Of a DNA stretch of 64,000 nt, positions 3,059 through 60,441 are shown one piece after another. The stretch spans positions 5,093-69,092 of the forward strand of contig JACRHW010000017.1 of assembly GCA_016217555.1 (NCBI GenBank), written 5' to 3'. The translations under genes and the position numbers were made by a program. The notes beneath the pieces were generated by a model that saw only the letters and a list, made by a program, of their open reading frames with translations, was not told where the DNA came from and made no database searches. Position 1 is the first letter of the stretch; every line of letters starts with the position of its first letter. The DNA comes from Parcubacteria group bacterium (GTDB lineage Bacteria; Patescibacteriota; Minisyncoccia; UBA6257; JACRHW01).

Positions 3059-3832
3059 ATGGAACAAAATATTAAAAATTATTTAGGTGTTGCAGGAATC
3101 ATTGCCATTCTTGCTGTGGCATATTCTAGTTATTCATATGTTGGGTCGTATGCGAGGTCAACAGATGTGAGGAGTTTTACGGTTTCAGCTGAAGGAAAAG
3201 CGATTGTATTGCCTGACGTAGCAAAATTTTCATTTAGTGTTATTACCGAAGGCGATAAGAACGTTGCTGACCTTCAGGGAGAAAATACAAAAAAAGTGAA
3301 CGACGCAATCAATTTTGTAATAGCGAAACACGTTGATAAAAAGGATATCAAAACCACAAATTATAATGTAACTCCTCGTTATCAGTATTCAAACTGTCCG
3401 CTTATGCAAAGCTCAAAACCATGTCCACCCCCATCAATCGCTGGATATACTATTTCCCAAGACGTTGAAGTTAGGGTTCGTGATTTCAGTGCAGTAGGGG
3501 ATATTCTTTCTGGTGTCGTGAGCAAGGGGGCTAATTCCGCTTCTGGGCTCTCTTTTACCGTAGATGATCAGACAAAGTATACGAATGAAGCACGTGCCGA
3601 GGCAATCCAAAAAGCGAAAGATCAGGCGAAGAGTATTGCACAGGCGGGTGGATTTCGATTGGGTCGTTTGGTATCGATACAAGAGGCGGGAGGGCAACAA
3701 CCATATGCGTATGATTCCTATGCTCCTAGTGGAATGATGAAGAGTTTTGCGGAGGTTGCGCCATCTCCTCGTATCGAGGCTGGTTCTAATGAAATAAAAA
3801 CATCCGTAACTCTTACCTACGAGATCGAGTAA
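3059..3832 (+). CDS. SIMPL (DUF541-like) secreted/periplasmic protein
   Basis: N-terminal TM/signal anchor, then FTVSAEGKAIVLPDVAKFSFSV... and C-terminal IEAGSNEIKTSVTLTYEI pattern typical of SIMPL/BP26-like proteins. Confidence 0.7.
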   Translation: MEQNIKNYLGVAGIIAILAVAYSSYSYVGSYARSTDVRSFTVSAEGKAIVLPDVAKFSFSVITEGDKNVADLQGENTKKVNDAINFVIAKHVDKKDIKTTNYNVTPRYQYSNCPLMQSSKPCPPPSIAGYTISQDVEVRVRDFSAVGDILSGVVSKGANSASGLSFTVDDQTKYTNEARAEAIQKAKDQAKSIAQAGGFRLGRLVSIQEAGGQQPYAYDSYAPSGMMKSFAEVAPSPRIEAGSNEIKTSVTLTYEIE

Positions 3833-4052
3833 CATCTATCTATTTTACGCATAGCTTTGTCAGAAACTACGTTTTTTATTCGCTGTACTGTCTTGTACAG
3901 CTCACAAAAAGCCTCGTTTCTTTCGCGCTCTGCATCAAAATATATAGATGTTATAGTATTTCCTGAGCTCGCCTGTGGTGAGTTTATCGAATCCATCGAG
4001 GACCCACTACTATTGTCCTATAAGCTATCAGCTAACACCTAAAAGCTAAACT

Positions 4053-10168: not shown

Positions 10169-10210
10169 CCAAACATGAGTGGTATGATGTATCATACCAC
10201 TCATGTTTGG
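10169..10210. repeat. perfect 42-nt palindrome (20-bp arms, 2-nt centre) in divergent promoter region
   Basis: ccaaacatgagtggtatgat gt atcataccactcatgtttgg. Confidence 0.9.
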
Positions 10211-14886: not shown

Positions 14887-14986
14887 AAATAAAAACTCAA
14901 AACGCAAAAGTCAAAACTACAACTAAAAACGTAAAACTTTTGATTTTTGAGTTGAAGTTTTGTGTTTTGACCTTTACGTTTTGAAT
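14887..14986. repeat. 'caaaa-word' palindromic element, copy A2
   Basis: aaaactcaaaacgcaaaagtcaaaactacaactaaaaac ... tttttgagttgaagttttgtgttttgac. Confidence 0.8.
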
Positions 14987-18975: not shown

Positions 18976-19061
18976 TTTTCATTATAATGACCCCATGTAG
19001 ATGGGGCTTTGTTTTTTCTTTGGTTTTATGACATAGTTACAATAATATCTTGAATTAAGAA

Positions 19062-19203
19062 GTGTGTATTTCGAACCATTCCGCAGACGCGAAGCTGGGT
19101 GTTGTCAACCCCGAGTGGAAACGAGTTGGGTTGACAACGGAGCGTCTGCGGGTGGAGTGAGTCGCCGCGGGAGTGACGAACGCGTGAGAAACACACATTT
19201 CGT
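19062..19203. repeat. structured ~140-nt repeat, family F copy 1 (opposite orientation to copies 2 and 3)
   Basis: ccgcagacgc...gttgtcaacccc...gggttgacaac...gcgtctgcgg nested hairpin bracketed by gtgtgt/acacac. Confidence 0.85.
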
Positions 19204-19296
19204 AATTCAAGGAATAATATGTCTTCGAGTATTTTTTTATTTATCGTATTCATCTCCCTATTTTATATAGGTGTTCTTTCAATTTTTATCTAAGAT

Positions 19297-21804
19297 ATGC
19301 AGAAATATAACCATGAAAAAATAGAGAAGAAGTGGCAGAAGGAGTGGGCGAATGATAATTTTGCTGCCTGGCGTGTAGAGGAGGGGGGTAAGAAAAAAAA
19401 GAAGTATGTTCTTGATATGTTTCCGTATCCTTCGGGGGATGGGTTGCATGTAGGACATATTGAGGGATATACCGCTTCCGACATTGTGAGTCGTTTTTCT
19501 CGGATGAGAGGATACAATGTACTTCACCCTATGGGATGGGATGCTTTTGGGTTGCCTACTGAAAATTATGCTATCAAACACAAGGTGCACCCTGCGAAGG
19601 TAACTGAAAAAAATGTTAATAATTTTCGCGCTCAGTTACAGCGTATGGGGTTTAGCTATGATTGGTCGCGTGAGGTAAATACTACAGACCCCGAATATTA
19701 TAAATGGACACAATGGATTTTTTTAGAACTTTTTAAACGCGGGCTTGCTTATGAGGCGGAGGTACCAGTCAACTGGTGTCCCAGCTGCAAAACAGTGCTT
19801 GCAAATGAGGAGGTGATTGATGGAACGTGTGATAGGTGCCACTCCGAAGTTATTCATAAAAATTTAAAACAATGGATTCTTAAAATTACTGCTTATGCAG
19901 ATAGGCTTCTTTCTGACCTTGATGATCTCGATTGGCCAGAACGTATTAAGGAGATGCAGAGGAATTGGATTGGAAAATCTTATGGGGCGCTTATAAAATT
20001 TCCTCTAGCGAATTTCAAATTTCCGCTTTCAGTTTTTACGACCAGACCCGATACGTTATTTGGTGTAACCTATGTGGTTCTTGCTCCAGAACACATACTC
20101 ATACAAGAGTTAAAAGATTATATTACGAATTGGGATGAGATCGTGGAATACGTAGGTGTAGCACGAAATAGGAGCGAACGTGAGCGGCAAGAGAAGAAGG
20201 AAAAAACAGGAATTGAACTTAGGGGTATAAGTGTTATCAATCCTGCAAATCAAAAAGAAGTTCCCGTGTGGATTGCTGACTATGTACTTATGGGGTATGG
20301 CACAGGGGCGGTAATGGCAGTACCCGCGCACGATGAGCGTGATTTTGCTTTTGCTAAGAAATATAGACTTCCTATAACAACGGTTATCCAGCCACTTTCT
20401 TATGAATGGGATGTTACGGTAGCGGCATACACCGACGAGGGGAGAATGGTTAATTCGGGAGAGTTTGACGGATTAGGTTCGGAAGAGGCGAAAAGGGCAA
20501 TTGTTGTAAAACTTCGGGAGCAAGGTTTCGCAGAAAATACGGTAAAATATAAACTTCGTGATTGGGTGTTCTCGAGACAAAGATATTGGGGAGAACCCAT
20601 TCCGCTTGTATTTTGTGAGGCGTGTGCGGAAAGAGTGAGAAAACAGAAAACAGAAAACAGAAAACAGAATGTGAACTTGGGAGAGATATTAAACCCCGGA
20701 TGGATGGCGGTGTCGGAGGGAGATTTGCCGGTTACCTTACCAAACGTAAAAAATTATGAGCCGACGGGAAACGCGGAGTCACCACTTGCTGGGATAACAA
20801 CATGGGTGAAAACGACATGTCCAAGGTGTGGAGGGGTTGCGCGACGGGAGACAAACACAATGCCACAGTGGGCGGGATCAAGCTGGTACTACCTCGCTTA
20901 CGTTATGCGAGGGAATTCAAAATTCAAAATTCAAAATTCAAAATTGTTTCAGTACTGGTTGCCTGTCGATATGTATATCGGGGGAGCAGAACATGCGGTG
21001 TTGCACCTTCTCTATGCGCGTTTTTGGCACAAGGTGTTGTATGATGCAAAAATCGTTTCTACCAAGGAGCCTTTTTATGCATTACGAAATCAGGGTCTTA
21101 TTCTTGGTCCCGATGGGGTAAAAATGTCTAAATCACGTGGAAATGTGATTAACCCCGATGCGGTGGTAAGGGAGTATGGTGCTGATACTCTTCGTATGTT
21201 CGAGATGTTCATGGGCCCACTTGAGGATTCAAAACCATGGGATATACGTAGTATTGTTGGCGTGCGAAGATTCTTAGAGAGGGTTTGGGGGTTACAAATA
21301 AAAATTAAAGATCAAAAATTAAAGATCAAAAATGACGGTGAAGACATAAGGAGACTTATGCATCGGACAATAAAGAAGGTGACGAAAGATATCGAGGAGA
21401 TGCGTTTTAATACTGCAATTTCTGCGCTTATGGTATATGTAAACGCGCTTGGAGGACAGGAGGATATTTCAAGGGAATCTTACACAACACTTCTTGTTTT
21501 GCTTGCGCCATTTGCCCCACATATCACTGAAGAATTGTGGCAATTGATGGAAAACAAAAATTCAATTCACTTTGAAAAATGGCCTATCTATGATCCGAAA
21601 CGTATCATAGAGGAGTATGGTATTCTTGTGGTACAGGTAAATGGGAAAACAAGAGATTCCATTGAGGTGGCAAAAGGTGTTTCTGAGGAAAATGCTTTGG
21701 AAATTGCCACCAAAAGGGATCGTATTGCTTTTTGCCTTAAGGGGAAAGAAATTATACGTGTGGTGTATGTGCAGAACAAACTTATCAATATTGTAGTAAA
21801 ATAA
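19297..21804 (+). CDS. leuS: leucyl-tRNA synthetase
   Basis: HVGH (HIGH) and KMSKS motifs, CP1 editing domain, full-length similarity. Confidence 0.98.
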   Translation: MQKYNHEKIEKKWQKEWANDNFAAWRVEEGGKKKKKYVLDMFPYPSGDGLHVGHIEGYTASDIVSRFSRMRGYNVLHPMGWDAFGLPTENYAIKHKVHPAKVTEKNVNNFRAQLQRMGFSYDWSREVNTTDPEYYKWTQWIFLELFKRGLAYEAEVPVNWCPSCKTVLANEEVIDGTCDRCHSEVIHKNLKQWILKITAYADRLLSDLDDLDWPERIKEMQRNWIGKSYGALIKFPLANFKFPLSVFTTRPDTLFGVTYVVLAPEHILIQELKDYITNWDEIVEYVGVARNRSERERQEKKEKTGIELRGISVINPANQKEVPVWIADYVLMGYGTGAVMAVPAHDERDFAFAKKYRLPITTVIQPLSYEWDVTVAAYTDEGRMVNSGEFDGLGSEEAKRAIVVKLREQGFAENTVKYKLRDWVFSRQRYWGEPIPLVFCEACAERVRKQKTENRKQNVNLGEILNPGWMAVSEGDLPVTLPNVKNYEPTGNAESPLAGITTWVKTTCPRCGGVARRETNTMPQWAGSSWYYLAYVMRGNSKFKIQNSKLFQYWLPVDMYIGGAEHAVLHLLYARFWHKVLYDAKIVSTKEPFYALRNQGLILGPDGVKMSKSRGNVINPDAVVREYGADTLRMFEMFMGPLEDSKPWDIRSIVGVRRFLERVWGLQIKIKDQKLKIKNDGEDIRRLMHRTIKKVTKDIEEMRFNTAISALMVYVNALGGQEDISRESYTTLLVLLAPFAPHITEELWQLMENKNSIHFEKWPIYDPKRIIEEYGILVVQVNGKTRDSIEVAKGVSEENALEIATKRDRIAFCLKGKEIIRVVYVQNKLINIVVK

Positions 21805-23543: not shown

Positions 23544-23680
23544 AGCGCTGTTCGGTAACCTCATACGTATTAGTGCCTGAGCTTGTCGAAGGCCCACCTT
23601 TCTCTAAGGAAACCCTTCGACTTCCTTCGACAAGCTCAAGACAAGTCGCTCGGGGAATACCATGTTTCCGAACAGCGTCG
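23544..23680. mobile_element. MITE-like element, family H copy 1 (outer TIR agcgctgttcggtaacctc; PELVEG-type palindrome inside)
   Basis: outer inverted repeats 23544-23562 / 23664-23680; inner gcctgagcttgtcgaaggc...cccttcgacttcc. Confidence 0.7.
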
Positions 23681-26888: not shown

Positions 26889-26891
26889 ACT

Positions 26892-27004
26892 GGCGCTGTT
26901 TTGAAACACAATATTCCCTGAGCGAAGTCGAAGGGTTTCCTTAGAGAAAGGCAGGCCTTCGACAAGCTCAGGCACTAGTAATTATGAGGTTACCGAACAG
27001 TGCC
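26892..27004. mobile_element. MITE-like element, family H copy 2 (inverted relative to copy 1)
   Basis: ggcgctgttttgaaac ... gaggttaccgaacagtgcc around cctgagcgaagtcgaaggg...gccttcgacaagctcaggc. Confidence 0.7.
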
Positions 27005-27016
27005 AAATAGACTTGA

Positions 27017-27116
27017 CCCCGTTAGAAGTAGACAAAATGTGTTAAAATCTTTAGGCTAAAAATGTGGTATCTAGATGTATTGAATCTTAAAAACGTTTTC
27101 GCTACTTCTAACGGGG
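27017..27116. mobile_element. 100-bp MITE, family I copy 1, TIR ccccgttagaagtag, TSD TTGA
   Basis: TIRs at both ends; TTGA at 27013-27016 and 27117-27120. Confidence 0.75.
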
Positions 27117-27190
27117 TTGACTTAAAACAAAGAATATACCATAAAGAGGTAGAAACATTTTTATGGTATGCGAGGTAGTATACAAAGGGT

Positions 27191-27238: not shown

Positions 27239-28309
27239 ATGCAAAATAAAACTCTTATACAATTAATTCATGATGCGTTGGGGATTTTAAACAAGAGGTC
27301 GAGGATTATCATCGAAAAAAGATACGGTTTGAAAACCGGTAATTTTGTAACTCTTGAGGCGATCGGGCAGGAGTATGGCATTACACGAGAGCGCGTGCGT
27401 CAAATCGAGGCGGCGGCCCTTACCAATCTTAAGAAGCATCGCATGCTTGATGGTCTAGAAGAGCCCATCCAAAAAACCAAAAACCATCTTGCACAATTGG
27501 GGGGTGTCTCTAGAGAGGATGTCCTTCTCGCTGCCGCAGCTCCTTATTTTGGTGTCGAGGATTCTAAAAAATTAAAAGCTTTTTATCCTTACTTCTATTT
27601 TGTTATGGAGCAGTCAGGATTGAAGCACTTGCCAGAAAGTGAGGAGTTTCACTCCGCATGGTATTTAGATACTGCATCGTTTCATCGCGCCAAGGATACT
27701 ATCCAGAAGTTCGAAGCATATCTTGAGGAGGTGGAGCGTCCTTTGGCTGCACATCTCGTTTCAGAACATATCAATCTGTTTTCAAAAAGTGGTACGGCAG
27801 TGAGTGATGAGTATTTGCAGAATCTTATTTCACTTTCAAAATTGTTTGGAAACAATGTCTTTGGGGAATTTGGGCTTGTCTCATGGAAGGAGATTGCGCC
27901 ACGTGGTGCAAGAGACAAGGCATTTCTCGTTCTCAAAAAGCATACAAAGCCACTTCATTTTCGACTTATCACACAACACATTAATGAGGCCAAATTTGCT
28001 CCCAAAAAGAGCCATCCGCTTACCGTCCACAATGAGCTTATTAAGGATAACCGATTCGTGCTCGTGGGGCGTGGGGTATATGCCTTGAAGGAGCGGGGGT
28101 ATGAGGCGGGAACAGTGCGCGATGTACTCAAAAGCCTTCTTCGTAAGAATGGTCCTCTTCCTCTCGCTTCACTTACACAATTGGTAAGCGATCAGCGCTT
28201 AGTTAAAGAAAACACGATCTTACTTAATCTTCAAAATCGTCAACACTTTTTAAAAAGTTCTGATGGGGTGTATACTGTGAAGGGCGATAGTTCAAACAAA
28301 ACAAAATAG
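27239..28309 (+). CDS. DNA-binding protein: sigma-70 region-4 HTH fused to two HARE-HTH-like modules
   Basis: EKRYGL...TLEAIGQEYGITRERVRQIEAAAL (sigma r4); ...FGEFGLVSW and HNELIKDNRFVLVGRGVYAL (HARE-HTH pattern D-x-RF...G-x-Y/W-x-L). Confidence 0.65.
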   Translation: MQNKTLIQLIHDALGILNKRSRIIIEKRYGLKTGNFVTLEAIGQEYGITRERVRQIEAAALTNLKKHRMLDGLEEPIQKTKNHLAQLGGVSREDVLLAAAAPYFGVEDSKKLKAFYPYFYFVMEQSGLKHLPESEEFHSAWYLDTASFHRAKDTIQKFEAYLEEVERPLAAHLVSEHINLFSKSGTAVSDEYLQNLISLSKLFGNNVFGEFGLVSWKEIAPRGARDKAFLVLKKHTKPLHFRLITQHINEAKFAPKKSHPLTVHNELIKDNRFVLVGRGVYALKERGYEAGTVRDVLKSLLRKNGPLPLASLTQLVSDQRLVKENTILLNLQNRQHFLKSSDGVYTVKGDSSNKTK

Positions 28310-28452
28310 GATTTACGCGTTTGGCGCATTTTTTCGTCAGAAACTCCGGTACAGAACGCAGTATATTTTTAATATTGCTTATTCTGATGAATGAAACGAA
28401 TAGTTTCGTTCATCGTTTTCTCCTCGAACTGCATCCAAACGCGTAAATCCTA
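28307..28452. mobile_element. 146-bp MITE-like element (family J) with 18-nt perfect TIR
   Basis: taggatttacgcgtttgg ... ccaaacgcgtaaatccta; internal hairpin gatgaatgaaacga/tcgtttcgttcatc. Confidence 0.7.
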
Positions 28453-29715: not shown

Positions 29716-29922
29716 CGAGGGGTTAGGTTTTAGTGTGTTAGGTTCCAAGGGCTAGAAATATCATGATCGTGCCTCGTTTCCTAATAAATCCCGTTAAAGG
29801 TAGAAAAAATAGTTAGTATATATTATTATTCATGTGTTAAAAACTATGCAACTATCTAAAACAGTCGTTTGTACCTACCCCTAACGGGATAAACTAATTC
29901 CTAAAAGCTAGAAGCTAATACA

Positions 29923-32524: not shown

Positions 32525-32564
32525 TATTCCTTGAGCGAGGTCGAAGGGCTATTATACTTGTTTG

Positions 32565-32592
32565 TCATTCCCGCGCAGGCGGGAATCCAGTG
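32565..32592. repeat. VIPAQAGIQ-type palindrome (family G)
   Basis: gtcattcccgcgcaggcgggaatccag. Confidence 0.7.
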
Positions 32593-32616
32593 TAAATAAA
32601 TCGCATCCTATATATT

Positions 32617-32748
32617 TCTCACCCATTCGCCACTCCAGCGTGCGGCTCACTCATCCACAGACGCTTCGTTGTCAACCCAACTCATTCTGATTCGGAGTTG
32701 ACAACACCCTGCTCCGCGTCTGCGGAATGGTTCGAAATACATGTGTTG
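32617..32748. repeat. structured repeat family F copy 2
   Basis: ccacagacgcttcgttgtcaaccc...ggagttgacaacaccctgctccgcgtctgcggaatggttcgaaatac. Confidence 0.85.
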
Positions 32749-32767
32749 TGATTCAGAAAATTTTATA

Positions 32768-32902
32768 CGTATCAGCTCACAAGACTGAGTGGAAAAATAA
32801 GATAGTGCCTGAGCTTGTCGAAGGCCTACCATAAGGAAACCCTTCGACTTCGCTCAGGGACTATAGATAAAGACTAACTTACTCAGAGTTGTGAGCTGAT
32901 AC
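32768..32902. mobile_element. nested palindromic element: outer TIR gtatcagctcacaagactgagt, inner PELVEG-type hairpin
   Basis: atcagctcacaagactgagt ... actcagagttgtgagctgat flanking gcctgagcttgtcgaaggc...cccttcgacttcgctcagg. Confidence 0.65.
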
Positions 32903-32975
32903 TTTTACACCTATTGACTAAACTACACCGTTTGTGGTATTTTTGTTTTAGCACATAGAAAAAGGAGGTAGTGAG

Positions 32976-35732: not shown

Positions 35733-37034
35733 ATGGTTAAAAAATCAATTTTGTTTTTATTAGGTTTTATTATCATATTTTTAGTAGTGTTTGGTGTCGT
35801 AAAGAAATATCATATTTTTTCACGGTTTGTATCTCTACGTGGTTCGTCGTTGTCTGAACTGTCTTTTGAGGATGCATTAAAACAGGGTTTTCAGAAGAAA
35901 ATTCAGAGAGAGGTCCTCCTTGCCACAACATCAGACAAAATAACACTAGAAAGGAAGGAGGAATATGTTGCCGTAGTAGACTACGAACAGAGAGTAATTC
36001 GTGCCATAGAGAAGTCGTCGCCTGCGGTAGTGAGTGTGATTATCTCTAAAGATGTGCCAGTACTCGAGCAGTATTACGCAACCCCTCTTAATAACGATCC
36101 ACTTTTCCAAGATTTTTTTGGGGGACAAGTACAGATTCCTCAGGTGCGTCAAGGGGGGGTAGAGCGTAAGGAGGTGGGAGGGGGCTCGGGGTTTATTATT
36201 TCTTCCGATGGTCTTATCGTGACTAATAAACACGTTGTTTCTGATCCGAATGCTTCGTATATTATATTGCTTAATGATGGGAAGAGATTTCCTGCAAAGG
36301 TGCTTGCGAAAGATGCACAGCAGGATATGGCAGTTCTTAAAATAGAGGCAAGTGGGCTTCCTACTCTTTCGTTGGGAGATTCTGATACGGTGAGAATCGG
36401 GCAAACGGCAATTGCAATCGGAAATTCATTGGGTGAATTCCGGAATACTGCTTCTACCGGAATAATTTCCGGATTGGCGCGTACTATTACCGCAGGAGGG
36501 GGTGGTATCGTGGAGACACTTCAGGGAGTTATTCAGACTGATGCGGCAATCAATCAGGGGAATTCGGGTGGGCCACTTCTTAATCTTCGTGGTGAGGTAA
36601 TTGGTGTTAATGCGGCAATAGCTCAGGGTGCTCAGAGTGTTGGATTTGCCATTCCTATCAACAAAGTAAAACGTGCTATTGAGGATGTGAAAGCTACCGG
36701 AAAGATCTCCGCTCCCTACCTTGGAATACGGTATGTTATTCTTGATGAGATAGTACAAAAAAAAGAGGGGCTAGGTGTTTCTTATGGTGCTTTCGTCCGT
36801 AGTGGTGAGAAGGGTGGCGTAGCCATTGTTCCCAATTCTCCTGCAAAGAAGGCGGGTATTAAAGAAAGGGATATTATACTCGAGGTTAATGGCAAGAAAG
36901 TGACCAAGGACGTTCCCTTGACCGATATAGTAAGCCAGTATAAGGTAGGGGATACGTTGACGCTTAAGGTCTTGCGTGGGAGCGAGACGATTGAAGTTAA
37001 AATAACCCTAGAACAAAGACCAACAAATCTTTAA
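35733..37034 (+). CDS. HtrA/DegP-family serine protease with PDZ domain
   Basis: catalytic triad context TNKHVV / DMAVLKI / GNSGGPLLN; C-terminal PDZ. Confidence 0.92.
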   Translation: MVKKSILFLLGFIIIFLVVFGVVKKYHIFSRFVSLRGSSLSELSFEDALKQGFQKKIQREVLLATTSDKITLERKEEYVAVVDYEQRVIRAIEKSSPAVVSVIISKDVPVLEQYYATPLNNDPLFQDFFGGQVQIPQVRQGGVERKEVGGGSGFIISSDGLIVTNKHVVSDPNASYIILLNDGKRFPAKVLAKDAQQDMAVLKIEASGLPTLSLGDSDTVRIGQTAIAIGNSLGEFRNTASTGIISGLARTITAGGGGIVETLQGVIQTDAAINQGNSGGPLLNLRGEVIGVNAAIAQGAQSVGFAIPINKVKRAIEDVKATGKISAPYLGIRYVILDEIVQKKEGLGVSYGAFVRSGEKGGVAIVPNSPAKKAGIKERDIILEVNGKKVTKDVPLTDIVSQYKVGDTLTLKVLRGSETIEVKITLEQRPTNL

Positions 37035-37135
37035 CTCAAAAATCAAAATGCAAAACTACAACTAAAAACTGAACGAACCAGCAAAAAAGTTTTATGGTTT
37101 TTAGTTGAAGTTTTGACTTTTGATTTTTAATTTTT
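37034..37135. repeat. 'caaaa-word' palindromic element, copy A3
   Basis: ctcaaaaatcaaaatgcaaaactacaactaaaaac ... gtttttagttgaagttttgacttttgattttt. Confidence 0.8.
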
Positions 37136-39822: not shown

Positions 39823-39936
39823 TACCCCACCCGAGACCAAAGCTCATCTCCAAAGGGGAGACCGTTACAACCCCCCTATTATAGCGATAACACCTGACTC
39901 CCCCTTGAGGATGATCATTTGGTCTCGGGTGGGGTA
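39823..39936. mobile_element. 114-bp MITE-like element (family K) with 19-nt perfect TIR
   Basis: taccccacccgagaccaaa ... tttggtctcgggtggggta. Confidence 0.7.
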
Positions 39937-40751: not shown

Positions 40752-42728
40752 ATGCGTACACTTGTAAAAATCTTTCTTTTTCTTTCTATTTTTTCTTTAA
40801 TAATTTTTTCTACCGATTTATTTTTTCCCTATATTACGGGTAAGATTTTTGCATTTCGTTTTTTCATTGAATTTGCTTTTATCGCATGGATTCTTGATCT
40901 TTTTTTGCGAAAAACGTTACGGTTCCGTTTTTCCGAGCCAATAGTGAAGGCTCTTCTCATTTTTTCCGGCTCCCTAATTGTTTCTGCCTTTTTTGGAGTA
41001 AATCCTTCGTTTAGTTTTTGGTCTGATTTTGAACGTAGCGAGGGACTATTCTCCTTTTTTCATTATCTCGCGTTCTTTATTATGCTTCTTGATGTGTTTG
41101 TCATGGATGATTACTATCGTTTAATTAAAGCATTTCTTATTATTTCTCCTTTTATTGCCTATTATCAGTTTTCTAATTATGTAAATATTGAAAAACATGC
41201 TTTTGGAAGAATTAATGGACTTCTTGGAAATCCTTCCTATGTGGCAACATTTCTTCTTTTTGTTTTTGGTCTTGGTTTTTATCTTGTTCTTAAAAATAGA
41301 GAACTGTTTCGCTCAACAAAAGACGTCTTTGTGTTGTTTGAGAACTGGCTTTGGTGTTTAATTTTATTGATTGACATTCCTGCCTTTTTCTTTACACAAA
41401 CACGTGGAGCATATGTGGGCGTTTTTGTGGCATTGGTTGTTTATCTTATTATGCTTGGGCGATATGGGGTGGCAAAGGAAAAAAAGATGGCCCGGTACAG
41501 TCTTCTTTTTCTGAGCATTTTTATCGTTTTGGGCAGTGTGCTTATCTTAAAAACAAATGTACTCCCATCGAATTTAAAAGATCCGGGAAGTTTGGTTTCT
41601 CGTTTTTCTACATGGAAGGCCGCTTTGCGTGGATTTCTTGATCGTCCTTTGCTCGGATATGGTCCCGAAAATTTTAACATTGCTTTTGATAGACACTATG
41701 ACCCAGTCCATTCGGGACTAGAGACGTGGTTTGATCATGCACACAATCTTCCCGTTGAGCTTCTTGCGGTGACAGGCGTTGTCGGTTTTCTTGCGTATTT
41801 ATATATTTTTTATATTTTTTTTCGCTATTACTTCTCGATTATCCTTAAAAAACGTCCTATCTATGAAGCGGCTCTTTTCCTTGCAATCCCTGTAGCATAT
41901 TTCATTCAAAATCTTGCCCTATTTGATTCTCTTACCTCTTATGTTTTATTTTTTACATTTCTCGCCTTGGCACGCACCATCGTACTAAGGGAAACCAATA
42001 CATATAGTACCAATATAGTGTATTTTGGACGACCATTATTTATTGGGTTGTGTTGCATCATTCTTTTTTTTGCCCCCCTTTTTGGGATATATTCAAACAT
42101 ATTTGCACTACAAAAAAACATGCGCCTTCTCGCCACATTTTTACCACCACAACAATCGTTTTCTCCGAGCGCAAAAGTAAATGTATATAAGCAACTGTTT
42201 GATTTGCCGGGTTTTGTGGGGAGACGTGAGATTTCTACCGCTCTTGCAAAAGATATATTCGATTGGTCTTCTTCTCGTAATCTTAGTAAGTTTTCCAGAG
42301 AAGATTTTGATGCTTTGAATGAAGGAATAAATATGAGTGAAGAATATCTAACACATGACCCTTCTCATATTCGCAATTATTATTTGTTGGGATATGCTTA
42401 TTCATCAATTGGGGGTTATTTTAAAGACAGAAAGGCTCTGATTCGCGGAGAGGATATCCTCAAAAGAGCAGATAAGTTGAGTCCTGGTAGAATAGAATTT
42501 CTTGAAGTTCTGATTAAAAATCTTGGCGCGCAGAAGAAATATGACGAAGCTCTTAAGTATTCTTTAGAAATTATACGATTGCGCCCCGATATGGAGGCGG
42601 GTCACCGATTCGCCGGAGTCTTTTATCAAAAGATAGGAGAGACAAAGAAGGGGAAAGAAGAGCTTGGCAAAGCATTATTGATTAATCCATCTTCAACCGC
42701 ATCCATATTTTTAGAAGAGAACAAGTAG
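40752..42728 (+). CDS. O-antigen-ligase-like (Wzy_C-type) polytopic membrane protein with C-terminal TPR repeats, paralog 1
   Basis: FFFTQTRGAYVG loop motif, >10 TM, TPR-like tail; 658 aa. Confidence 0.75.
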   Translation: MRTLVKIFLFLSIFSLIIFSTDLFFPYITGKIFAFRFFIEFAFIAWILDLFLRKTLRFRFSEPIVKALLIFSGSLIVSAFFGVNPSFSFWSDFERSEGLFSFFHYLAFFIMLLDVFVMDDYYRLIKAFLIISPFIAYYQFSNYVNIEKHAFGRINGLLGNPSYVATFLLFVFGLGFYLVLKNRELFRSTKDVFVLFENWLWCLILLIDIPAFFFTQTRGAYVGVFVALVVYLIMLGRYGVAKEKKMARYSLLFLSIFIVLGSVLILKTNVLPSNLKDPGSLVSRFSTWKAALRGFLDRPLLGYGPENFNIAFDRHYDPVHSGLETWFDHAHNLPVELLAVTGVVGFLAYLYIFYIFFRYYFSIILKKRPIYEAALFLAIPVAYFIQNLALFDSLTSYVLFFTFLALARTIVLRETNTYSTNIVYFGRPLFIGLCCIILFFAPLFGIYSNIFALQKNMRLLATFLPPQQSFSPSAKVNVYKQLFDLPGFVGRREISTALAKDIFDWSSSRNLSKFSREDFDALNEGINMSEEYLTHDPSHIRNYYLLGYAYSSIGGYFKDRKALIRGEDILKRADKLSPGRIEFLEVLIKNLGAQKKYDEALKYSLEIIRLRPDMEAGHRFAGVFYQKIGETKKGKEELGKALLINPSSTASIFLEENK

Positions 42729-42776
42729 CGTGTTCAGGAGGCCAATAATTACAATCAAAACTTTTTTTAAAATTCC

Positions 42777-44753
42777 ATGCGTGTTCTTGTAAAAATCTTT
42801 CTTTTTCTTTCTATTTTTTCTTTAACGTTTTTTTTAGCTGACTATTATTTCCCCTATATTGTCAGCAAGGTATTTCCTTTTCGATTGTTTATCGAGCTTG
42901 CGACAATCTCGTGGCTCATCAATCTCTATTGGTTTCGTATAATACGTTTTAAGTTTTCTGAACCTATTGTAAAGGCTGTTCTTGTTTTTTCTGGGGCACT
43001 TCTTGCCTCCACTCTTTTTGGGGTGAACCCACTCTTTAGTTTTTGGTCTAATTTTGAACGGAGCGAGGGGCTTTTTTCTTTCTTGCATTATTTAGCATTT
43101 TTCATCCTCCTCATTGATGTATTTTCTGAAGATGACTACTATCGTCTTATTAAGTTTCTTCTTCTCCTCTCCCCGCTTATTTCTTATTATGGGTTTTCGA
43201 GTTTTCGGGATGCTAATACTTATCAGTATGGAAGAGTGTTTGGGGTTTTTGGAAATCCCTCATACCTTGCGGCATTTCTTATTTTTGTGTTTGGGTTTGG
43301 TGTGTTGTTGATTTTGAGAAATATAGAATTTGCTAAAGTTTTGAAGGATCCCTTGTTGATTGTCGAAAATATACTTTGGATAGTTCTTTTGTTGGGAGAT
43401 GTTCCAGCATTCATTCTTACACAGACAAGAGGTGCTTACATTGGACTTTTGGTTGGCGTGCTTGTTTTTCTTATCTTTCTTTTGCGGCAGGGAAAGGGGG
43501 TTCAGAAAAAATATGCTGTCGGAGGTCTCATTGTACTTCTTTCTCTTGTTGCGCTTGCGGGGTTTGTCATTTTAAAAACCAAAATAGCTCCGGCGAATCT
43601 TAAGGATCCATCCACACTTGTCTTTCGTTTTGCTACGTGGGGTTCAGCATGGAAATCATTTCTCGACCATCCTCTTTTCGGGTATGGTATGGAAAATTTT
43701 TCAGTTGGATTTGATAAGCACTATAACCCAATCCATTCGGGTGTTGAAGTCTGGTTTGATCACGCCCACAGTGTGATATTTGATGCACTTGCAAGCACGG
43801 GTCTCTTGGGACTTATTTCCTATATTGCTATTTTTGTAGTACTATTTCGTTTCTATCTTCCCGTGATCACAAAACGACGCCCGGTGTTGGAGGCTGGTGT
43901 ATTCTTTGCCCTTCCTATTGCATATTTTGTCCAAAACCTTGTTTTGTTTGATACCCTTTCTTCCTATATCCTTTTCTTTCTCTTTCTTGGTGTGGTGCGT
44001 TCAGTGTTTTTGAAGGAGACAAGCAAGAATAAAGAGAAAACTTTTTTTGCGGCACACCCCATACTACTAAGTTTTGTAGTGGTGATGCTTGTTATTGCTG
44101 TAGTTTTTGGTATTTATGCGAACTTTGTTGCTTATCAAAAAAATAGGGAGTTAAGGACCGCCTACACTCTTTCTCGCCAATCCCAACTTCCTCGTGGAGT
44201 GGAGGAGTATCGAGGATTACTTGATATGCCAGGATATTTAGGAAGAAGGGAGGTGATTAAGGATTTTGCCGCTTATTTGTATGAGTGGTCCGCAAAATCT
44301 GATTTGCGGTCTCTTTCCAAAGAGGATGGTGGTGCCCTGGGTGGGGGCTTGAGGACAGTAAACGATTTTCTTGACAAGGAAGATCCTCAATACCTTAATG
44401 GATATTATCTTTTTGCGAATACCTATAACGTGATTGCATTTAAATTGGGTGATGCTACCGTGTTTCAAAAGACGGAATCTACCCTAAAAGAAATGAATAC
44501 AAAGAGCCCAAATCGCATAGAAATAATCAATTTGCTTGCAGATAATCTTATTGCACAGAGAAAGTATGACGAGGCGCTTAGTTATGCGCTTCAAATTACA
44601 ACACTGCGTCCTGACATGGAGGTGGGGCATAGGCTTGTTGGGTTTGTATACAATAAGATAGGGAGGCGTGACGAAGCTAAAAAAAAGGGGGAGGAGGCTT
44701 TACGTATCAATCCAAGCTCTACCGCCGCAGAATATCTTAAAAAAATACGTTAA
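42777..44753 (+). CDS. O-antigen-ligase-like membrane protein with TPR repeats, paralog 2
   Basis: same architecture and same length (658 aa) as the upstream gene. Confidence 0.75.
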   Translation: MRVLVKIFLFLSIFSLTFFLADYYFPYIVSKVFPFRLFIELATISWLINLYWFRIIRFKFSEPIVKAVLVFSGALLASTLFGVNPLFSFWSNFERSEGLFSFLHYLAFFILLIDVFSEDDYYRLIKFLLLLSPLISYYGFSSFRDANTYQYGRVFGVFGNPSYLAAFLIFVFGFGVLLILRNIEFAKVLKDPLLIVENILWIVLLLGDVPAFILTQTRGAYIGLLVGVLVFLIFLLRQGKGVQKKYAVGGLIVLLSLVALAGFVILKTKIAPANLKDPSTLVFRFATWGSAWKSFLDHPLFGYGMENFSVGFDKHYNPIHSGVEVWFDHAHSVIFDALASTGLLGLISYIAIFVVLFRFYLPVITKRRPVLEAGVFFALPIAYFVQNLVLFDTLSSYILFFLFLGVVRSVFLKETSKNKEKTFFAAHPILLSFVVVMLVIAVVFGIYANFVAYQKNRELRTAYTLSRQSQLPRGVEEYRGLLDMPGYLGRREVIKDFAAYLYEWSAKSDLRSLSKEDGGALGGGLRTVNDFLDKEDPQYLNGYYLFANTYNVIAFKLGDATVFQKTESTLKEMNTKSPNRIEIINLLADNLIAQRKYDEALSYALQITTLRPDMEVGHRLVGFVYNKIGRRDEAKKKGEEALRINPSSTAAEYLKKIR

Positions 44754-45553: not shown

Positions 45554-46088
45554 CATTCTGTAACGTAATTTCTTATCGATTCGTTATAATTAACAAGGAA
45601 CACAGTGTTTTTTATTAGTTTTCCACAGTGAGATCTATTGCAAGGGGGTTGCTTTTTTTGCTAAAATAGAGTATACTAAGCAGGACTCAAGGAATGTAGG
45701 AAAACACTAGGTTTTTTCGCCAAACGGGCGGGCTTTTAGGGAGCGTTTTTCTTTTCACACCTGTTTTATCGCAATGTTGTGATACAATAGGTGTGAAAAG
45801 AAAAGGGACGTAACGATTGCAGTAGATAGACAGGAGGTGATGGACTGTTATTTGAAAACTGAATAAGGGCTAGATAAAAAATGGTAGCGCCTGAGCTTGT
45901 CGAAGGCTTACCAAATTAATTCTTTTTTTCTCGATGTAATGAGTCGTAATCAAGGTCGGTGATTCGTTTAACACGAATCATGCTCTCGGCTCTTCTAGAA
46001 ATGTGTATGTAAACAAATAATTAAGCGATTTGTTTTGTGGCGTCGAACCACAAAGGAATCGCGTAACAAAAATTAAATACAAAAAATT

Positions 46089-51678: not shown

Positions 51679-51687
51679 TAAAGTGAA

Positions 51688-51786
51688 CCCCGTTAGAAGT
51701 AGGTAAAAACATTTGTTGTTCGTCTCGTGTATATCATAGATGGTACAATAATGTAGAAAAATTGTTTTTGTATACTTCTAACGGGG
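51688..51786. mobile_element. 99-bp MITE, family I copy 2, inserted in the outer tRNA-Thr 3' half; TSD TGAA
   Basis: TIR ccccgttagaagta / tacttctaacgggg; TGAA at 51684-51687 and 51787-51790. Confidence 0.75.
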
Positions 51787-51827
51787 TGAAGGTCCTCGGT
51801 TCGAATCCGAGAGGTGGCTCAGGTATT

Positions 51828-58686: not shown

Positions 58687-58738
58687 ATATAAAGAAGGTT
58701 AGAATATCTGTGGTTATTATACTTCAATTATTTTGATT

Positions 58739-60169
58739 ATGAAAGATCCTCTTATTGCATTAAGCTACGACGATGTGCTTCTTGTGCCTCGTTTTTCGCG
58801 TATTCGTTCGAGAAGAGAGCCGGTACTTAAAACACGATTTACAAAAAACATTGCACTTAATATCCCTATTGTGAGCGCTAATATGGATACCGTGACAGAG
58901 TCAAAGATGGCGATTGCGCTGGCGAGGTTTGGAGGCATTGGCGTAATACATCGTTTTCTCTCCATTGAGCGTGAAGTAGAAGAGGTTTCAAGAGTAAAGC
59001 GTGCAGAGGCATATGTGATCGATGACCCCTATACTGTTTCTTCTGAGATACTTCTCAAGGATGCAAAGCAGAGGATGTATACATTAGGAGCTGCGTTGTT
59101 GGTAATTGATGAGCATAGAAAACTTATTGGTATTCTTACTCACAGAGACGTAGAGTTTGTTGATAGTACTACCTTGCGTGTATCTGATGTAATGACGAAG
59201 GAGTTAATTACTGCATCACCTAAGATTTCTTTGGATGGGGCTAAAGAAGTATTTATGAAACAAAAAATAGAAAAACTCCCTCTTGTTGATGCGAAGGGAA
59301 TTTTGAAAGGGCTTATTACCAAAAAGGACATTCTTGCACGTATTCGGTATCCAGAAGCTGCAAAGGATAAGAAGGGAAGATTGCTTGTGGGTGCTGCTGT
59401 GGGGGTTGTGGGGGATTATAAAGAACGTACCAAGGCGCTCATCGAGGCTGGTGTAGACGTAATTGTAATCGATATCGCACATGGGCATTCGATCATGATG
59501 AAGGAAGCGATGGCGAGCATTAAAAAAATAACAGGAGAACACGTTGATATTATTGCGGGAAATGTTGCGACGAGAGATGGGATGCGCGACTTGGTGAGGT
59601 GGGGCGCTGATGCGGTAAAGGTGGGGATTGGCCCTGGGGCGGCATGTACTACACGTATTATGACGGGTGTTGGAGTACCTCAGTTTTCTGCGGTATATGA
59701 GTGTGCAGGAGAAGCTAAGAAACTTCGTGTCCCTGTAATTGCAGATGGGGGGGTTAAAAATTCTGGTGATGTGACGAAAGCGCTTGCCGCAGGTGCCGAG
59801 ACGGTGATGATAGGAAGTATGTTTGCCGGTACGGATGAAAGTCCGGGGCAGGAGATCGTAAAAAACGGGGCGCGGTATAAACTCTATCGTGGCATGGCAT
59901 CGATTGGTGCAAACGTCGCCAAAACAAATATCTCCGGATTACAAAAAGGTGTTAACTATGAACGTATTACACCAGAGGGGGTGGAGGCAGTAGTGCCCTA
60001 TAAGGGTAAGATTGACGCGACCATTTCGTTGCTTCTTGGGGGGCTTCGGTCGGGGATGAGTTACTTGGGTGCAAAGACTATTCCCGAGATGTCAAAGAAT
60101 GCTGAATTTATACAAATTACACAGGCGGGACTTAGAGAGAGTAATAGCCATGATATTGATGTGAAATAA
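58739..60169 (+). CDS. guaB: IMP dehydrogenase
   Basis: [10 protein letters not shown] start, CBS pair, catalytic [19 protein letters not shown]. Confidence 0.96.
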
Positions 60170-60189
60170 TTATTTTTGTAAATTATGAT

Positions 60190-60361
60190 TTACGAAACCT
60201 CTCTTCCTCACACGTTCGGATACCTAGCGGTATCCTCACTCATCCGCAAGCGCTTCGTTGTCAACCCAACTCTCCGCCATCCGCCAACTGGCTGAGGCGG
60301 ATCGGGGTTGACAACACCCTGCTTCTCACTTGCGGAATGGTTTGGAAGAGATGTTTCGTAA
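60190..60361. repeat. structured repeat family F copy 3 (with extra apical hairpin)
   Basis: tacgaaacctctcttcc ... ccgcaagcgcttcgttgtcaaccc ... ggggttgacaac ... cacttgcggaatgg ... ggaagagatgtttcgta. Confidence 0.85.
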
Positions 60362-60441
60362 GTCATCACTATAAAAGTACAATATACTTTTTAAGTCAAG
60401 TTCACTAATTATATAAAAGAGGTACACTGGGGCTAGTTACT

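Follow-up and report, generated by a model that had tools for sequence, protein, structure and literature searches.

The window, by which we mean the whole 64-kb stretch of DNA analysed here, contains three copies of a hairpin-rich element, family F. They lie where the initial annotation had placed them, and alignment showed them to be homologous to each other. As had also been noted, all copies are intergenic: copy 1 lies before leuS, between a 201-aa ORF (with its terminator) and leuS, copy 2 starts 70 nt past the stop of efp, and copy 3 is found 14 nt past the stop of the IMP dehydrogenase gene guaB. Element boundaries were set from the inverted-repeat arms, the duplication register and the covariance-model matches. 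The coordinates given at first for the copies captured the core correctly but not the full extent of the elements, which is listed below. The strand reading 5'-..TTTCGAACCATTCC.. is hereafter referred to as the A strand.

19049..19212 (164 nt), + strand: copy 1, complete element; model match 19057-19205, 146 bits; limits from the empty-site alignment
32594..32757, - strand (A strand = -): copy 2; model match 32601-32749, 148.8 bits
60183..60367 (185 nt), - strand (A strand = -): copy 3; model match 60190-60359, 143 bits

Copies of family F are 164-185 nt long. Terminal inverted repeats of about 23-28 bp (detected arms 23-31 nt, 81-91% complementary) enclose a core of 110-130 nt, and no ORF of ≥80 aa was found inside the copies. 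The three window copies score 143-149 bits with the covariance model (E about 1e-31 to 1e-33), and a filter-free search with this model yielded no fourth copy in the 64-kb window. Each copy contains the 16-mer core GTTGTCAACCCAACTC exactly once, and the rest of the window does not contain it; 1.47 loose matches would be expected by chance. The same holds for the 12-mer TGCGGAATGGTT, previously described as a conserved tail, which is identical in 3/3 copies, once in each, and absent from the rest of the window. We also recovered in the family F copies the nested hairpin that had been proposed, with an outer stem CCGCAGACGC/GCGTCTGCGG and an inner stem GTTGTCAAC/GTTGACAAC. Alignment and folds confirmed the compensated swap of GA/TC to AG/CT in the outer stem of copy 3 as well as the extra apical hairpin of this copy, and the terminal stems are indeed divergent yet complementary (GTGTGT/ACACAC in copy 1, CTCTCTTCC/GGAAGAG in copy 3). 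Compared with shuffled sequence, the window copies have fold z-scores of -2.4 to -10. Copy 1 folds with -64.9 kcal/mol (z -5.5), its better-folding A strand being the + strand, and copy 3, with an inverted repeat that is 91% complementary, with -92 kcal/mol (z -10).

Regarding the neighboring genes, guaB (58733-60169) encodes a protein with 74-89% identity to GuaB of close-clade Parcubacteria. Beyond the close clade the listed homologs that carry a source name are thaumarchaeal/Thermoproteota (Nitrosotenuis, Nitrososphaera; 55-56% identity), while most listed matches at 54-58% carry no source name; this hints at a possible archaeal-type IMP dehydrogenase in this lineage. Within the leuS coding region a short tandem repeat with three 7-nt units TTGAATT is present on the - strand (20914-20941).

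Insertion sites and distribution of family F

In L091 and L092 the region upstream of leuS reads ...GTTACAGTG|TTATGCACCC... without interruption, whereas the window reads ...GTTACAATAATAT[C-TTGAATTAAG...CGTAATTCAA-GG]AATAATATGTCTTCG... at copy 1. Comparison of the unbroken site with the window sequence thus shows that copy 1 was inserted and that the 8 bp on its two sides are an exact duplication. The duplications of copy 1 and their degraded counterparts at copy 3 are the following:

19041..19048, no strand: left 8-bp target-site duplication AATAATAT of copy 1; single uninterrupted site in L091 and L092
19213..19220, no strand: right 8-bp target-site duplication AATAATAT of copy 1; register test 8/8
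60175..60182, no strand: degraded duplication partner, 8-mer TTTGTAAA; 5/8 identical to 60368-60375; one TTTTGTTA-type site in L097
60368..60375, no strand: degraded duplication partner, 8-mer ACTATAAA; register test, L097 empty site

Relatives with 82-89% identical LeuS or GuaB are without the element at the corresponding sites, as determined by model searches and alignments. Empty sites were found upstream of leuS in L091, L092 and L093 and downstream of guaB in L097 and L099. In L097 (88% identical GuaB) and L099 the intergenic regions downstream of guaB are short and can be aligned on both sides of copy 3, and none of the relatives examined carries a copy after guaB. A model search of four contigs with LeuS orthologs (71-83% identity) likewise revealed no family F copy. 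Family F is a mobile insertion that targets AT-rich intergenic DNA, where the cut is staggered by 8 bp. The suggestion that the element was a structured RNA or a MITE is hereby settled for its second half: the MITE is shown by the empty sites, the 8-bp target-site duplication, the inverted repeats and the dispersed copies.

We applied the register of copy 1 to the flanks of 20 copies, an inspection for target-site duplications that had been recommended with the first description. Agreement was 8/8 at copy 1, 7/8 at L002 (TTTAATAT/CTTAATAT) and 5/8 at copy 3; among mismatched flank pairs (n=380) none reached 8/8 and two reached 7/8. In 17 of the 20 copies the duplication is at chance level, and the mean over all 20 is 2.9/8 compared with a null of 2.6/8. 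That a duplication is visible in just 2-3 of 20 copies counts against reading family F as a MITE with a maintained fold. The element ends are (C)TTGAATTACGAAA-type inverted repeats with TTGAATTACG-like tips. They form the stem P1, which is present in all 18 aligned copies, and their tips are the least conserved part of the element (P1 identity 0.48 over all copy pairs), which is unusual for a transposase substrate.

The fixed 8-bp duplication together with the inverted repeats points to a DDE-type transposase acting in trans as the probable mobilising enzyme, and the duplication argues against the IS200/IS605, REPIN, IS110 and attC mechanisms, all of which proceed without one. No transposase, RT or HUH enzyme was detected by Pfam in essentially all window ORFs and in the neighbors of copies in other loci, and a search of the window and the other loci with the tip TTGAATTACGAAAT returned F copies and chance matches, with no longer element that has matching ends. 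Two further possibilities were discarded. P1 is not derived from pre-existing palindromes of the target, as the duplication lies outside P1 and the young copies c1, L067 and L059 share P1. At L079:1321-2796 two inverted F copies bracket recA in the manner of a composite transposon, one of them 140 nt downstream and the other overlapping the recA start region, but the gene between them is an ordinary recA.

To survey the distribution, one exact-pattern scan was run over 185,579 species-representative genomes with a pattern that required the P3 sequence. True members were found in two CPR MAGs only, namely Parcubacteria NC_groundwater_1788 (L002, L036, L039, L042) and a MAG labelled Saccharibacteria (L021, L028, L045, L048), while the remaining 41 loci were chance palindromes or unrelated repeats. 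One exact-pattern scan of metagenomes added L056, L059, L060, L067, L071 and L079 from a few groundwater and lake samples. Since the genome and the metagenome pattern both demanded P3, the invariance of P3 and the narrow distribution are in part ascertainment effects. A covariance model built from 18 distinct copies recovered 25 strong matches with 128-167 bits and none scoring between 26 and 128 bits; two new copies with altered P3 were found by the model only (L039:3540-3695 and L079:1321-1470). In total there are about 20 distinct copies, from the window and 14 loci of related genomes and metagenomes. No copies were present near the 71-78% identical LeuS or GuaB of relatives in the 24 kb and 21 kb examined. 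Because intermediate model scores are absent and the more distant LeuS and GuaB relatives have no copies nearby, we regard family F as a tight family restricted to a narrow Parcubacteria/CPR clade, with the caveat that both scans required P3. BLAST against phage and plasmid collections gave no family F match, and a candidate on a viral contig (L095) was dismissed as a chance match that has no covariance-model support.

Copy 2 and the copy in L071 are orthologs, L071 being syntenic with the window from 24.6 to 33.8 kb at 77-82% nucleotide identity, and L021 and L042 contain a second orthologous pair. The other copies occupy non-orthologous places between housekeeping genes (recA, ftsK, nusA, lepA, mnmA, ychF, pnp). 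In the L021/L042 pair (L021:3673-3836 and L042:5053-5216) the F element fills the entire gap from the upstream stop codon to the start of a polynucleotide-phosphorylase-like gene and in A orientation would be the 5' leader of this gene.

Fold, covariation and strand asymmetry

RNAalifold predicted for the 18 copies a stem P1 of at least 22 pairs that closes a three-way junction, from which a P2-P3 arm (P2 of 11 bp and P3 of 12 bp, with a 9-nt bulge) and a P4 hairpin of 5-8 bp emerge. Tandem motifs of the G.A type (CGAAC/GUGAG) are located at the top of P1 and at the base of P4. The parts of the fold in copy 1, and the additional hairpin of copy 3, are:

19050..19072, + strand: P1 5' arm = left terminal inverted repeat TTGAATTAAGAAGTGTGTATTTC; inverted-repeat call
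19081..19090, + strand: P2 5' strand CCGCAGACGC, pairs with 19142-19151; fold, consensus
19100..19139, + strand: P3 hairpin, 12-bp stem UGUUGUCAACCC/GGGUUGACAACG with 16-nt loop; fold, consensus
19142..19151, + strand: P2 3' strand GCGTCTGCGG; fold, consensus
19157..19181, + strand: P4 hairpin with tandem G.A base (GUGAG...CGAAC) and conserved CGCUGG-type loop; fold, consensus
19188..19210, + strand: P1 3' arm = right terminal inverted repeat GAAACACACATTTCGTAATTCAA; inverted repeat, fold
60272..60303, - strand: extra apical hairpin in the P3 loop of copy 3; also in copy L039:6896-7066

The gathering of more copies into a covariance model, which the initial annotation had proposed, revealed strong covariation. 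Compensatory (double) changes were found in 33 of 53 pairs, comprising 20 of the 22 consensus pairs of P1, 7/11 in P2 and 6/8 in P4, and they amount to 154 cells compared with 47 in shuffles. 93.3% of cells are paired, against 78% in shuffles and 34-46% with slid partners, and none of 500 shuffles reached any of the five observed covariation measures. In P3 the model-only copies show one change from C-G to U-A and one from G-C to G-U. P1 has a constant length of 28-30 nt from tip to junction; in copy 2 it is partly decayed, with 15 Watson-Crick pairs, 2 G-U pairs and 5 unpaired positions. Some resemblances to known motifs were examined by eye and rejected: GAUGAG...GAA is not hammerhead-like, as the conserved bases GAGUGAG are not stem-adjacent and the equivalent of A15.1 is C, and a K-turn is excluded by the absence of the 3-nt bulge. 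With regard to a guide function of the P1 arms, no matches of ≥16 nt were found elsewhere in the window and the collected loci.

The two strands of the element are not equivalent. In P1, P2 and P4 the ratio of G-U to A-C on the A strand is 54:16, a count that overstates the independent events given the shared descent of the copies; counted per column, G-U prevails in 12 and A-C in 2. In 17 of 18 distinct copies the A strand forms a more stable fold than the B strand, by ~12 kcal/mol on average. The bias persists in both orientations, the G-U:A-C ratio being 9:3 where A is sense to the neighboring genes and 26:6 where it is antisense. Regarding orientation, the A strand is antisense to both neighbors in ~10 copies and sense in ~4, a distribution that is not significantly non-random; with a mostly antisense A strand, ordinary read-through would yield the weaker B-strand RNA. 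Promoter and terminator scans of the copies revealed no such signal tied to the element. A search of the whole window against Rfam at gathering thresholds returned only tRNAs, and at E up to 10 the copy 1 region gave spurious miRNA/sRNA matches. The strong covariation and the strand-specific G-U excess support the structured half of the original proposal, and taken with the insertion data they support a view in which structured RNA and MITE are not alternatives, family F being a MITE with a maintained single-strand fold.

P1 is 90% paired even though most duplications have eroded to chance level. That it still pairs after the duplications have decayed indicates that pairing is actively maintained rather than left over from a recent insertion. 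Flanking genes in the two orthologous pairs have a third-codon identity of 0.52-0.58, and identity within the element is 0.50-0.77 for the stems P1/P2/P4, 0.72-0.85 for the unpaired core, 0.81-0.88 for the P3 loop and 0.96 for P3, the unpaired junctions being more conserved than synonymous sites. Over all copy pairs the unpaired core has an identity of 0.80, against the low value for P1 given above. The stems therefore drift at about the neutral rate yet stay paired, while junction and loop bases are conserved. Conserved junctions combined with freely covarying stems look like the pattern of a structured RNA and the reverse of a typical MITE with best-conserved tips. The strand-specific three-way-junction fold outlives the insertion scars.

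Three stem types, I, II and III, can be distinguished: P2 GCAAGCGC with P4 GATACC, P2 GCAGAYRC with P4 GCCAC, and P2 TCCGGCGC or GAAGGCGC with P4 GATACC. They are common to non-orthologous copies and differ between orthologs. As the distribution of the types is at odds with orthology, copies undergo ectopic conversion or replacement, and ectopic gene conversion may explain some of the core conservation with no need for a host function.

Other hairpin elements in the window

Hairpin repeats abound in the intergenic DNA of this small genome. At 32769-32902, close to copy 2, lies a second hairpin element, which is unrelated to family F and has inverted repeats GTATCAGCTCACAAGACTGAGT; the orthologous intergenic region of L071 lacks it. 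Its flanks (32761-32768 and 32903-32910) read TTTTATAC/TTTTACAC and agree at 7/8 positions, which suggests a further MITE that duplicates 8 bp. The inner part of this element (~32803-32864) recurs in the window at 23544-23624 and 26890-27004 and also in L036, L042 and L028. The 70 nt directly after the efp stop (32530-32599) are absent from L071 as well; they include a hairpin CATTCCCGCGCAGGCGGGAATC and possibly represent a further small insertion.

A hairpin of 114 nt, whose 19-bp inverted repeats TACCCCACCCGAGACCAAA are perfect, lies at 39823-39936. Stretches 93% identical to it are present in L048, L057 and L079, and stretches with 75-81% identity in L021 and L045; in L048 and L057 such a stretch adjoins an F copy, and a related sequence follows guaB in L096. 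An Rfam match of this hairpin to plant/animal miRNA precursors is spurious. Two adjoining paralogous 658-aa genes with O-antigen-ligase (Wzy_C) domains lie at 40752-44753. A third family of ~100 nt, with common inverted repeats ACCCCGTTAGAAGTAG...CTACTTCTAACGGGGT, is represented at 27016-27117, 51687-51787 and 29788-29890. Additional inverted-repeat elements or palindromes, with arms of 17-37 nt, lie between genes at 28307-28452, 3830-3953, 37033-37133 and 14894-14953, 45747-45804, and 10169-10210, the last being a perfect 20-bp palindrome.

Interpretation and comparison with known systems

We interpret family F as a new non-autonomous MITE family of Parcubacteria with a fold that is maintained on one strand, probably as RNA, and that is analogous to bcr1; we assign this reading a probability of roughly 0.72. 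Several results weigh against it: no transposase or longer element with matching ends turned up in the window and the loci examined, the tips vary most, neither promoter nor terminator accompanies the copies, the A strand is mostly antisense to its neighbors, and P1 of copy 2 is partly decayed. The fold would be maintained by selection acting on the A strand in single-stranded form. This form would most likely be RNA, arising from read-through or antisense transcripts in which the element may fold into a hairpin that binds protein or is of the RNase III type, as has been suggested for bcr1, Correia and ERIC, and old copies would be retained structured modules rather than decaying junk. Two stronger versions are conceivable and in our estimation rather unlikely: family F may be a mobile structured-RNA module, its junction and P3 bound by a host or element factor and its old copies selected as RNAs, or the A-strand fold may serve as a mobilisation signal, in which case transposition would be structure-dependent instead of tip-sequence-dependent.

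Several observations would also be expected of a MITE with a hairpin kept at the DNA level only and no RNA function, the arms staying alike through the need of one transposase or quasi-palindrome template switching and the core staying uniform through gene conversion. Covariation is symmetric and cannot separate DNA from RNA, stem types that cross non-orthologous copies and differ between orthologs fit conversion or replacement, the promoter and terminator scans found no expression signals, copy 2 is decaying, and the window holds many other inverted-repeat hairpin elements. A double-stranded constraint, however, does not lead one to expect the 54:16 excess of G-U on one strand, which moreover appears to run counter to the bias that deamination would produce on the exposed sense strand in most copies. 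Tandem G.A motifs are formed on strand A only, with pyrimidine mismatches on B, and the internal stems P2 and P4 covary though they are not transposase ends. We consider an exclusively DNA-level maintenance of the fold unlikely.

Two other explanations were considered. Conserved junctions and loops combined with covarying stems are the classic pattern of an RNA gene, and the strand bias, an apical loop that tolerates an extra hairpin and orthologous copies kept across ~80% coding identity would all suit independently transcribed genes for a structured, trans-acting small RNA (protein-binding or scaffold RNA), dispersal being a side issue. Such genes are hard to reconcile with the lack of a conserved promoter or terminator, with flanks that are unrelated between copies and copies that abut the stop codons of neighboring genes, and with several divergent copies per genome, some of them decayed. 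There is no Rfam match, and target duplication and empty sites show spread by transposition, so that this explanation is improbable. About as improbable, in our view, is a single-stranded intermediate recognised by its fold, either ssDNA of the REPIN/RAYT or IS200/IS605 type or a reverse-transcribed RNA resembling a bacterial SINE. It would explain a strand-specific fold irrespective of local gene orientation, a conserved core in place of conserved tips, and the constant 28-30 nt from tip to junction in P1. But HUH-type transposition works without target duplication and needs no inverted repeats, whereas family F has both; neither reverse transcriptase nor Y1 transposase nor RAYT lies near the copies examined, an A-tail is absent, and Rfam yielded no matches (window at gathering thresholds, copy 1 at E up to 10). 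The 8-bp duplication at the second, unrelated window element furthermore fits an ordinary DDE enzyme.

CPR/Parcubacteria have tiny genomes that are commonly called streamlined, yet this 64-kb stretch holds several hairpin insertion families, and our literature search found no description of MITEs in CPR/Patescibacteria. Family F offers a clean example in its empty sites and exact duplication, to which an RNA-gene-like conservation pattern is added. It could mark recent transposition in uncultured episymbionts, and it could be used to test whether MITE hairpins become co-opted RNA elements. It also carries a warning for annotation, as repeats of this kind score as 'structured RNA' by covariation though they spread as DNA.

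Hallmarks of MITEs are a size below 200-400 bp, terminal inverted repeats, target duplications, absence of a transposase and long stem-loops at the RNA level (PMC3184786). The closest parallel is bcr1 of the Bacillus cereus group, an interspersed repeat of ~155 bp that is flanked by direct repeats, is not conserved in its distribution, is transcribed and has a 'cruciform-like' fold with two independent stem-loops kept by compensatory changes and a stability that varies between copies (PMC3184786). Family F resembles bcr1 in size class, direct-repeat flanks, patchy distribution, a closing stem plus two stem-loops with compensatory changes, and variable stability. The two share no sequence similarity and belong to different phyla, the duplication is 5 bp in bcr1 and 8 bp in family F, and the terminal stems of family F are much longer (22-28 bp). 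Transcription is established for bcr1 and putative for family F.

The Correia (NEMIS) elements of Neisseria and the ERIC/IRU elements of enterobacteria are similar to family F as intergenic MITEs of 100-170 bp with ~25-bp inverted repeats, present in both orientations and forming long RNA hairpins (PMC3184786). Sequence similarity to family F is lacking in both. Correia elements are defined by a TA duplication and the Correia inverted-repeat sequence and have conserved tips with promoter-like boxes; family F has the 8-bp duplication AATAATAT, variable TTGAATTACG-like tips and a branched conserved core. Within mRNAs, Correia and ERIC hairpins can be processed, with roles involving RNase III and mRNA stability.

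REP/REPIN sequences mobilised by RAYT are likewise intergenic hairpin repeats with maintained pairing that possibly act as single strands. REPs are units of 20-40 nt or doublets with GTAG/CGTC heads and have neither such inverted repeats nor a target duplication (PMC3733652). Family F differs from them by its 8-bp duplication and its branched fold of 164-185 nt, and the inverted repeats and 8-bp duplication also set it apart from IS200/IS605-derived elements (PATE, omega-RNA, HEARO), which have neither and whose end hairpins a Y1/HUH enzyme recognises. Integron attC sites share with family F a variable sequence, a conserved single-strand hairpin and strand selectivity. They occur in same-orientation arrays behind cassettes beside an integrase, and their recombination proceeds without target duplication. 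The copies of family F, in contrast, are single, lie in both orientations among housekeeping genes and have a duplication. Family F is therefore not bcr1, Correia, ERIC, REP/REPIN, an IS200/IS605-derived RNA or attC; it is a bcr1-like structured MITE and constitutes a new family, not a new class.
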